Made by a program: the position numbers and the translations under genes
Shown here: positions 8,011 to 9,166 of the stretch, one piece after another
Position numbering within the stretch: position 1 is the first letter of the stretch
Layout: each line of letters begins with the position of its first letter
The notes under the pieces: generated by a model
What the model was told of the DNA's origin: nothing
What the model saw: only the letters and a program-made list of their open reading frames with translations
Databases searched by the model: none
Origin: a virus
Lineage: Duplodnaviria; Heunggongvirae; Uroviricota; Caudoviricetes
Virus record (IMG/VR): IMGVR_UViG_2547132127_000011
DNA: 16,794 nucleotides
Reading direction: 5' to 3' (one strand)

Positions 8011-9166
8011 ATCGAATTACGCCAGCAGAAAACCGCCATTAAAAATCAGATGCGCGACATGCTGGAGAACGCTGAAAAAGAAAACCGCAGTCTTAACGAT
8101 GCTGAGGGCGCAAAATTTGACGAATTACGCGCTAAAGCTGAATCCCTCGATAAAGACATTTCCCGCCTTGAAGCCATTGCAGACGAAGAGCGCAGCAAGC
8201 CAGGTAAAAGCAGCCAGACCACTGACCCCGCAGAACTACGCAACTACATTCTGACCGGTGAAACCCGCGCATTAAGTACAGGCGTTCCCGCTGATGGTGG
8301 TTATACCGTTATCCCTGAACTGAACACCGAAATCATGCGAATGCTGGCGGATGAATCCACCATGCGCCGCATCTGTACCGTGAAGAAAATCAGCAGCAAC
8401 GAGTTTAAGCAGCTTGTTTCCGCTGGCGGTGCGACCGTTAACCACGGTGAAGAGGGTAAGGCACGCGAACAGACCAGCACCCCGCAGATTAACGAGGTGA
8501 GCATTAAGCTGTATCCGGTCTATGCGTACCCGCGCACCACACAGGAAATCGTGGATTTTTCCGATGTGGACATCCTTTCATGGCTGACGGGTGAGATTGG
8601 CGACACCTTCACGGAAACCGAAGAAAGCGATCTGGTTGTGGGCGACGGTGACAAAAAAGCAAAAGGTTTTTTATCCGTACCCCGTGCAGAGAAGAACGAC
8701 AAAGAGCGTGATTTTGGTACGTTGCAGGTAATTAAACCTTCCGAATCTCTGGCGTGGACATCTGCGGACCCGCTGATCGACCTGAAATTTGCATTACGTA
8801 AAAAATACCGCAAAAACGCGGTCTGAGTGGTTAACTCCACGACGGCGGCAAAACTTCAGAAGGTGAAGAACGCGAACGGTGATTATATCTGGCGCGACCG
8901 TTTACAGGCGGGTGATCCTGATACGTTGCTGAGCCTTCCGGTCGAATATCTGGAGTTTATGCCTGATAACGTTATTGCCCTGGGTGACTTCAAACGCGGT
9001 TACTACATTGTTGATCACGAAACAGGTGTTCGCACCAGACCGGACAACCTGACAGAACCAGGATTCATCAAAATTTTCACGCAAAAATATTTAGGCGGTG
9101 GCGTGGTGGATTCGAACGCGATCAAGATTCTGGCACTGCCGGAAGACGACGATTAACAGCATACAG

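Follow-up and report, generated by a model that had tools for sequence, protein, structure and literature searches.

Capsid-forming PICIs (cf-PICIs) have a core that, following SatelliteFinder (PMC10085698), consists of an integrase, an AlpA regulator, a primase-replicase, a capsid, a prohead protease, a portal, a head-tail adaptor, a connector, an HNH protein, TerS and TerL, while tail and holin genes are forbidden by definition. The prototype is EcCIEDL933 of E. coli O157:H7, whose capsid is available as structure 9GYI (bioRxiv 10.1101/2025.02.11.637232). According to the paper on the EcCIEDL933 capsid, this satellite capsid differs from HK97 in being T=4 and in having no covalent K169-N356 crosslink.

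The DNA analysed here, a stretch of 16,794 nucleotides referred to as the window, carries a capsid gene that belongs to a degraded cf-PICI satellite located between roxA and phoQ of Shigella flexneri, and not to a prophage. The capsid is approximately 99% identical to that of EcCIEDL933 over all 385 residues. Compared to EcCIEDL933, the copy in the window is defective: codon 276 (Trp) is an opal stop, an IS1 element is inserted after codon 4, the start of TerS and a region spanning ssb and perC are deleted, and the capsid sequence carries the substitution G312S.

The types of lesion (a Trp nonsense transition, IS1 with a 9-bp duplication, deletions between short repeats) are those of the IS and point-mutation pseudogenes known from reductive evolution in Shigella, and, as with these, the lesions of the window are fixed in a host-restricted lineage. 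Unlike the usual Shigella pseudogenes, the target is a mobile satellite instead of a chromosomal metabolic gene, but nothing else is distinctive. The finding is ordinary gene decay.

Gene content of the island

All eleven components of the cf-PICI core are recognisable, based on Pfam matches on loci identical to the window and tblastn comparison with annotated E. coli islands: an integrase (1..1230), AlpA, a D5_N/DUF5906 primase, the capsid, an S78 protease, a portal, a head closure protein, a connector, an HNH protein, a P27-type TerS and TerL. Damage affects two of them, the capsid and TerS genes. Among the called genes from the integrase to phoQ, Pfam families for tail or lysis functions were not found, and the annotated relatives list none. 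Gene set and order are the same as in the intact E. coli islands L001 and L002, which are related to EcCIEDL933, share 98-99% DNA identity with the window and also have no tail or lysis genes. In a tblastn comparison with L001, the genes of the packaging operon (9196..14242) showed 95-100% identity and all except TerS were of full length. The assignments below rest on tblastn against annotated L001 genes and on Pfam matches on identical loci.

9196..9768, plus strand: prohead protease
9770..10981, plus strand: portal
10978..11316, plus strand: head closure
11313..11609, plus strand: connector
11609..12049, plus strand: HNH
12286..12597, plus strand: TerS remnant, not full length
12581..14242, plus strand: TerL

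At 3767..5515, where the closest E. coli islands (L001 and L002) encode a RepA-family helicase, the window has a D5_N/DUF5906 primase of 582 residues. The left half of these satellites is therefore mosaic.

On either side of the island, between roxA and phoQ, there is an exact direct repeat of 21 bp that is probably the att core. This repeat was found in L013, a locus that extends beyond the window, in which the second copy of CGGTGTAGTTAATGGTGTAGT is located 47 bp upstream of window position 1, before the integrase gene (L013 1905..1925).

15233..15253, no strand assigned: candidate attR core, CGGTGTAGTTAATGGTGTAGT

In related islands, integration has taken place at two or more other sites, tqsA among them. 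The approximately 700 bp at 14540..15230, which separate the att-like repeat from the last conserved gene of the island (14256..14537), contain no ORF of note and gave no Rfam match.

Reading frame of the capsid gene

The earlier note had described two ORFs, 8050..8826 and 8827..9156, as lying in the same frame and parted only by a TGA. Coordinates and translation confirm this: the TGA is located at 8824..8826 on the plus strand and is in frame between both ORFs, with the translation across the stop reading KYRKNAV-stop-VVNSTTAAKL. The Pfam profile PF05065 (Phage_capsid) has 280 positions, of which the upstream ORF matches 1-166 (E value 2.8e-29) and the downstream ORF 169-278 (E value 4.5e-22). 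Since these segments adjoin, the two ORFs together make up one PF05065 domain, now split, and are neither independent genes nor a chance juxtaposition. The mechanically called ORF 8050..8826 begins at the internal Met18 of the gene, the parts of which are as follows.

7222..7233, plus strand: capsid gene start, ATG and codons 2-4 (ATG CAG AGA ATA), placed by alignment to the intact L001 and L002 genes; severed from the rest by IS1
8002..8823, plus strand: capsid codons 2-275; 98-99% identity to intact E. coli capsid genes, PF05065 positions 1-166
8824..8826, plus strand: opal stop at capsid codon 276; TGG (Trp) in intact relatives, G to A at 8826
8827..9156, plus strand: capsid codons 277-385 and native stop, now untranslated; PF05065 positions 169-278, carrying G312S and E379A

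Joining 7222..7233 to 8011..9156, which removes IS1, yields a reading frame of 385 codons. When TGG is also restored, the repaired protein of 385 residues matches TIGR01554 (HK97-family major capsid) nearly end to end, at profile positions 2-383 of 385 (E value 1.3e-86; 291.2 bits, cut-off 27.5), and PF05065 with an E value of 1.1e-59 (202.6 bits, cut-off 24.2). The repaired protein thus gives a full-length match to the HK97 gp5 family above the curated cut-off. In the window itself, the frame for the whole fold is interrupted by the stop at codon 276 and by IS1 after codon 4, and a stop codon stands where most members of the family have W or F in the motif Y-R-x-[NG]-A-x-[WF]-x-M-N. The capsid gene of the window is a pseudogene of the HK97 family and not a working member. 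It has only four Trp codons (195, 253, 276 and 298), each of which is one transition away from a stop.

Ancestral state and conservation of codon 276

Related E. coli islands with 98-99% DNA identity encode a single gene of 1158 nt and 385 codons, annotated as phage major capsid protein. The intact orthologues read KNAVWVVNSTTAAKL, with TGG (Trp276) at the position of the stop codon. In a base-by-base comparison of codon 276 with L001 and L002, G to A at 8826 was the sole difference. The best PDB match of the capsid, chain B of 9GYI (385 residues, E value 1.7e-252, approximately 99% identity), also has W at 276. The change from TGG to TGA proposed in the earlier note is borne out by these comparisons.

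An alignment with HK97-family homologues, which the same note had suggested as a check, was used to analyse conservation in a wider sample. The N-terminal ORF was searched against 1.84 billion cluster representatives and 107 full-length relatives were aligned, with identities to the query of 23-61% (median 31%). Column 276 is occupied by W in 67, by F in 34 and by other residues in 6 of these diverse relatives, and the family consensus around it is Y-R-x-[NG]-A-x-[WF]-[LMV]-M-N-x-x-T. The capsid of the Rhodobacter gene transfer agent (6TB9) has F in this column. As judged from the alignment, column 276 is a conserved aromatic position, mostly Trp, and not an invariant Trp. The motif that the earlier note gave for the family, NA(V/T)-W-V-MN..TAA, essentially matches the consensus; its Trp as a fixed residue does not hold. 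In HK97 gp5 itself, the residue aligned to W276 is presumably Ile.

IS1 insertion and order of events

The IS1 insertion in the capsid gene is real. The element is 768 bp long, contains intact insA and insB genes with the corresponding Pfam matches and is flanked by a 9-bp target duplication, CAGAGAATA, with the left copy at 7225..7233 and the right copy at 8002..8010. It is located after capsid codon 4, the native ATG being at 7222.

7234..8001, minus strand: IS1, 768 bp; Pfam DDE_Tnp_IS1 (E value 1.1e-73), HTH_Tnp_IS1 and Zn_ribbon_InsA
7671..7946, minus strand: insA, inside IS1, intact
7249..7752, minus strand: insB, inside IS1, intact

Six S. flexneri copies (L013, L014, L015, L017, L018 and L023) have the TGA together with the native ATG and an empty IS1 site. 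These IS1-free loci are colinear with the window and consist of the native ATG, an ORF of 275 codons, the TGA and then the ORF of 109 codons. The distance to the window is only 2-3 SNPs in 16 kb for some of them and 28 for others. Since the TGA is present in six copies in which the IS1 site is empty, the nonsense mutation came first and IS1 later. The insertion happened recently, in one sub-lineage to which the window belongs.

Further lesions in the island

The island is decaying as a whole, with the start of TerS deleted and ssb-perC largely deleted. A deletion of 98 bp between CCCCGCC repeats took the ATG and the first 9 codons of TerS as well as 71 bp of upstream intergenic DNA. This deletion is common to all S. 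flexneri copies examined. In the 10 E. coli genomes listed as best matches, the junction matches in two pieces covering 176-177 bases, and an extra 97-98 bp are kept between them. The 71 bp lost upstream of TerS might also have held packaging (cos) signals. The second deletion, of approximately 500 bp relative to the E. coli islands, left an ORF in which codons 1-25 of ssb are fused to the C-terminal portion of a PerC-family regulator. In tblastn, residues 1-25 of SSB map to 6394..6468 and residues 54-88 of PerC to 6466..6573; the blastn layout and a weak Pfam match to PerC point to the same fusion.

12261..12267, plus strand: junction of the 98-bp deletion (CCCCGCC), from comparison with E. 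coli islands
6394..6555, plus strand: SSB-PerC fusion ORF, 53 codons

Every TGA-bearing copy that was found also has the TerS and ssb-perC deletions. Working cf-PICIs are induced by a helper phage and transferred in small capsids of their own, to which helper tails are joined; the lesions of the island predict that no such transfer takes place.

Functional consequence of the stop codon

The change from Trp276 to a stop is almost certainly an ordinary pseudogene lesion in a decaying satellite, which predates IS1 and is not a recoding signal. A single G-to-A transition turned codon 276 of the major capsid gene from TGG (Trp) to TGA, so that translation from the native start would end after 275 residues and the last 109 residues of the HK97 fold would be missing. 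In the capsid protein of EcCIEDL933, each of the single substitutions K290D, E319K and R345D abolishes island transfer and D295K reduces it 100-fold. K290, E319 and R345 are all located within the 109 residues lost past codon 276. With essential residues in the lost part, we infer that the 275-residue fragment is unable to assemble and that no capsid is formed. Many S. flexneri strains inherited the mutation, and in one sub-lineage the later IS1 insertion after codon 4 cut off most of the capsid coding sequence from the start codon and the ribosome-binding site; a polar effect of IS1 on the downstream operon may be expected.

Two S. flexneri-specific changes are located 3' of the stop, G312S (8932, GGC to AGC) and E379A (9134). 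Column 312 is Gly in 103 of the 107 relatives. Leaving aside the polymorphic residue 2, nonsynonymous S. flexneri-specific changes were not found in the gene 5' of the stop. G312S and E379A fit a loss of constraint on the untranslated tail. Together, the TGA, IS1, G312S and the further lesions of the island agree with the earlier description of the capsid gene as decaying. As a counterpoint, protease, portal, head closure, connector, HNH and TerL are still of full length and 95-100% identical to intact relatives. With these packaging genes intact, the decay is incomplete and appears to be recent.

Alternatives to simple inactivation

We consider programmed recoding, in which UGA is read as selenocysteine or efficiently as Trp and full-length capsid is still made, to be very improbable; programmed readthrough was already regarded as a less likely option in the earlier note. 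Near-cognate misreading of UGA by tRNA-Trp occurs at a low level in E. coli and enterobacteria; it would insert the ancestral Trp, and the native start is kept in IS1-free strains. Against recoding, a scan of the entire window at Rfam gathering thresholds yielded 0 matches, SECIS included, and the 70 nt past the stop (fold of 8815..8895) fold no better than shuffled sequences (z = -0.70). The SECIS hairpin of a selenoprotein directly 3' of the UGA is thus missing, homologues have TGG or an aromatic residue at codon 276 and not Cys or Sec, and selenocysteine or a structured recoding signal was rejected. The sequence around the stop does not differ from that of relatives with TGG, and a context for recoding has therefore not evolved. 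In addition, the near-invariant Gly312 downstream is now Ser, the start of TerS is lost, and IS1 later broke the capsid gene without counter-selection. The amounts also argue against it: a T=4 shell needs 240 subunits (60 x T), or approximately 235 with a portal in place of one penton, for which trace readthrough would probably yield too little.

It is equally a long shot that the broken gene, if still expressed from its native start, retains an activity in IS1-free TGA strains, either as a trickle of wild-type capsid from tRNA-Trp readthrough or as an abundant dominant-negative fragment of 275 residues that poisons the capsid assembly of related HK97-like phages. This N-terminal fragment consists of the scaffold-like delta domain and a partial HK97 fold. 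If true, either would constitute a residual interference role for the decayed satellite, which could explain that the remainder of the operon is still intact.

Ordinary decay of a single gene also has to be set against a designed split gene, in which 275 and 109 residues, the latter from the GTG right after the stop, would jointly form the capsid subunit. This reading has next to no chance of being correct: although the GTG at 8827 directly follows the TGA, a layout that can allow termination-reinitiation, and some annotation pipelines call the 109-residue ORF a protein (SUI65585.1), intact relatives encode a single protein of 385 residues, the chain in the solved capsid structure is likewise of 385 residues, nothing resembling a Shine-Dalgarno sequence is located ahead of the GTG (AAAAACGCGGTCTGAGTG), and the remaining 109-residue calls in E. 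coli trace back to copies with a break at another site (W253 TAG, frameshifts). No split was found in the 40 listed of 349 complete E. coli genomes, in each of which the gene is annotated as phage major capsid protein. The treatment of the capsid as one gene in the earlier note stands, and the opposing case that it had named, homologues with two genes at this position, is absent from these 40 genomes.

Distribution of the TGA allele

Looked up by exact sequence, the ORF products of 258 and 109 residues were found on a total of 22 contigs, with many independent sequencing runs represented. The TGA allele is present in Logan assemblies of 12 separate runs, in the NCBI assembly GCA_900457185.1 (S. 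flexneri; protein SUI65585.1) and in S. flexneri SFBU1023 (CP182556.1). It was seen in 10 of 10 loci examined, and in S. flexneri it recurs in 10 or more independent runs or assemblies. In a scan of one genome per GTDB species, a 40-mer with the TGA was found only in S. flexneri SFBU1023 (CP182556.1), and for a 69-mer around the TGA, a search of the 349 complete E. coli genomes in which the capsid gene is present gave no exact match. The TGA is inherited and serves as a marker; S. flexneri, from which the window derives, is the only species in which it was found here.

A sequencing or assembly error in a genome that truly has TGG, the other option to which less weight had been given before, can be regarded as excluded for all practical purposes: a difference of one base, seen in one window, might in principle have arisen by error, and other assemblies of related islands (L009, L011) have homopolymer frameshifts that may be errors, but the same TGA recurs in the 12 Logan runs, GCA_900457185.1 and CP182556.1, and the copies bearing it include L014, which is 28 SNPs from the window over 16 kb.

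Annotations should show a single, disrupted capsid pseudogene that belongs to a defective cf-PICI, instead of two "bacteriophage proteins" or a prophage. Phylogenetic markers within S. flexneri can be derived from the shared TGA, from the lineage-specific IS1 and from the two deletions, and the locus provides a small dated example of the stepwise inactivation of a phage satellite in a host-restricted pathogen. Beyond annotation and lineage markers, its importance is little.

Independent capsid breaks in E. coli

Two proteins of 109 residues in the same cluster (P0017, P0018) hinted at the same break at codon 276 in E. coli. This was rejected, as the lesions differ: the E. coli loci of the 109-residue calls have a TAG at codon 253 (L006, L012) or are frameshifted or noisy assemblies (L005, L007-L011), and they read VWVV with TGG at codon 276 wherever readable. 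The frameshifts of L009 and L011 are located in an A-run near codon 269 and are either real or assembly errors. The two orthologous capsid genes with the TAG at Trp253 (L006 9173..10330 and L012 784..1941) belong to E. coli islands integrated at tqsA. This independent nonsense mutation suggests that loss of satellite capsid function recurs.
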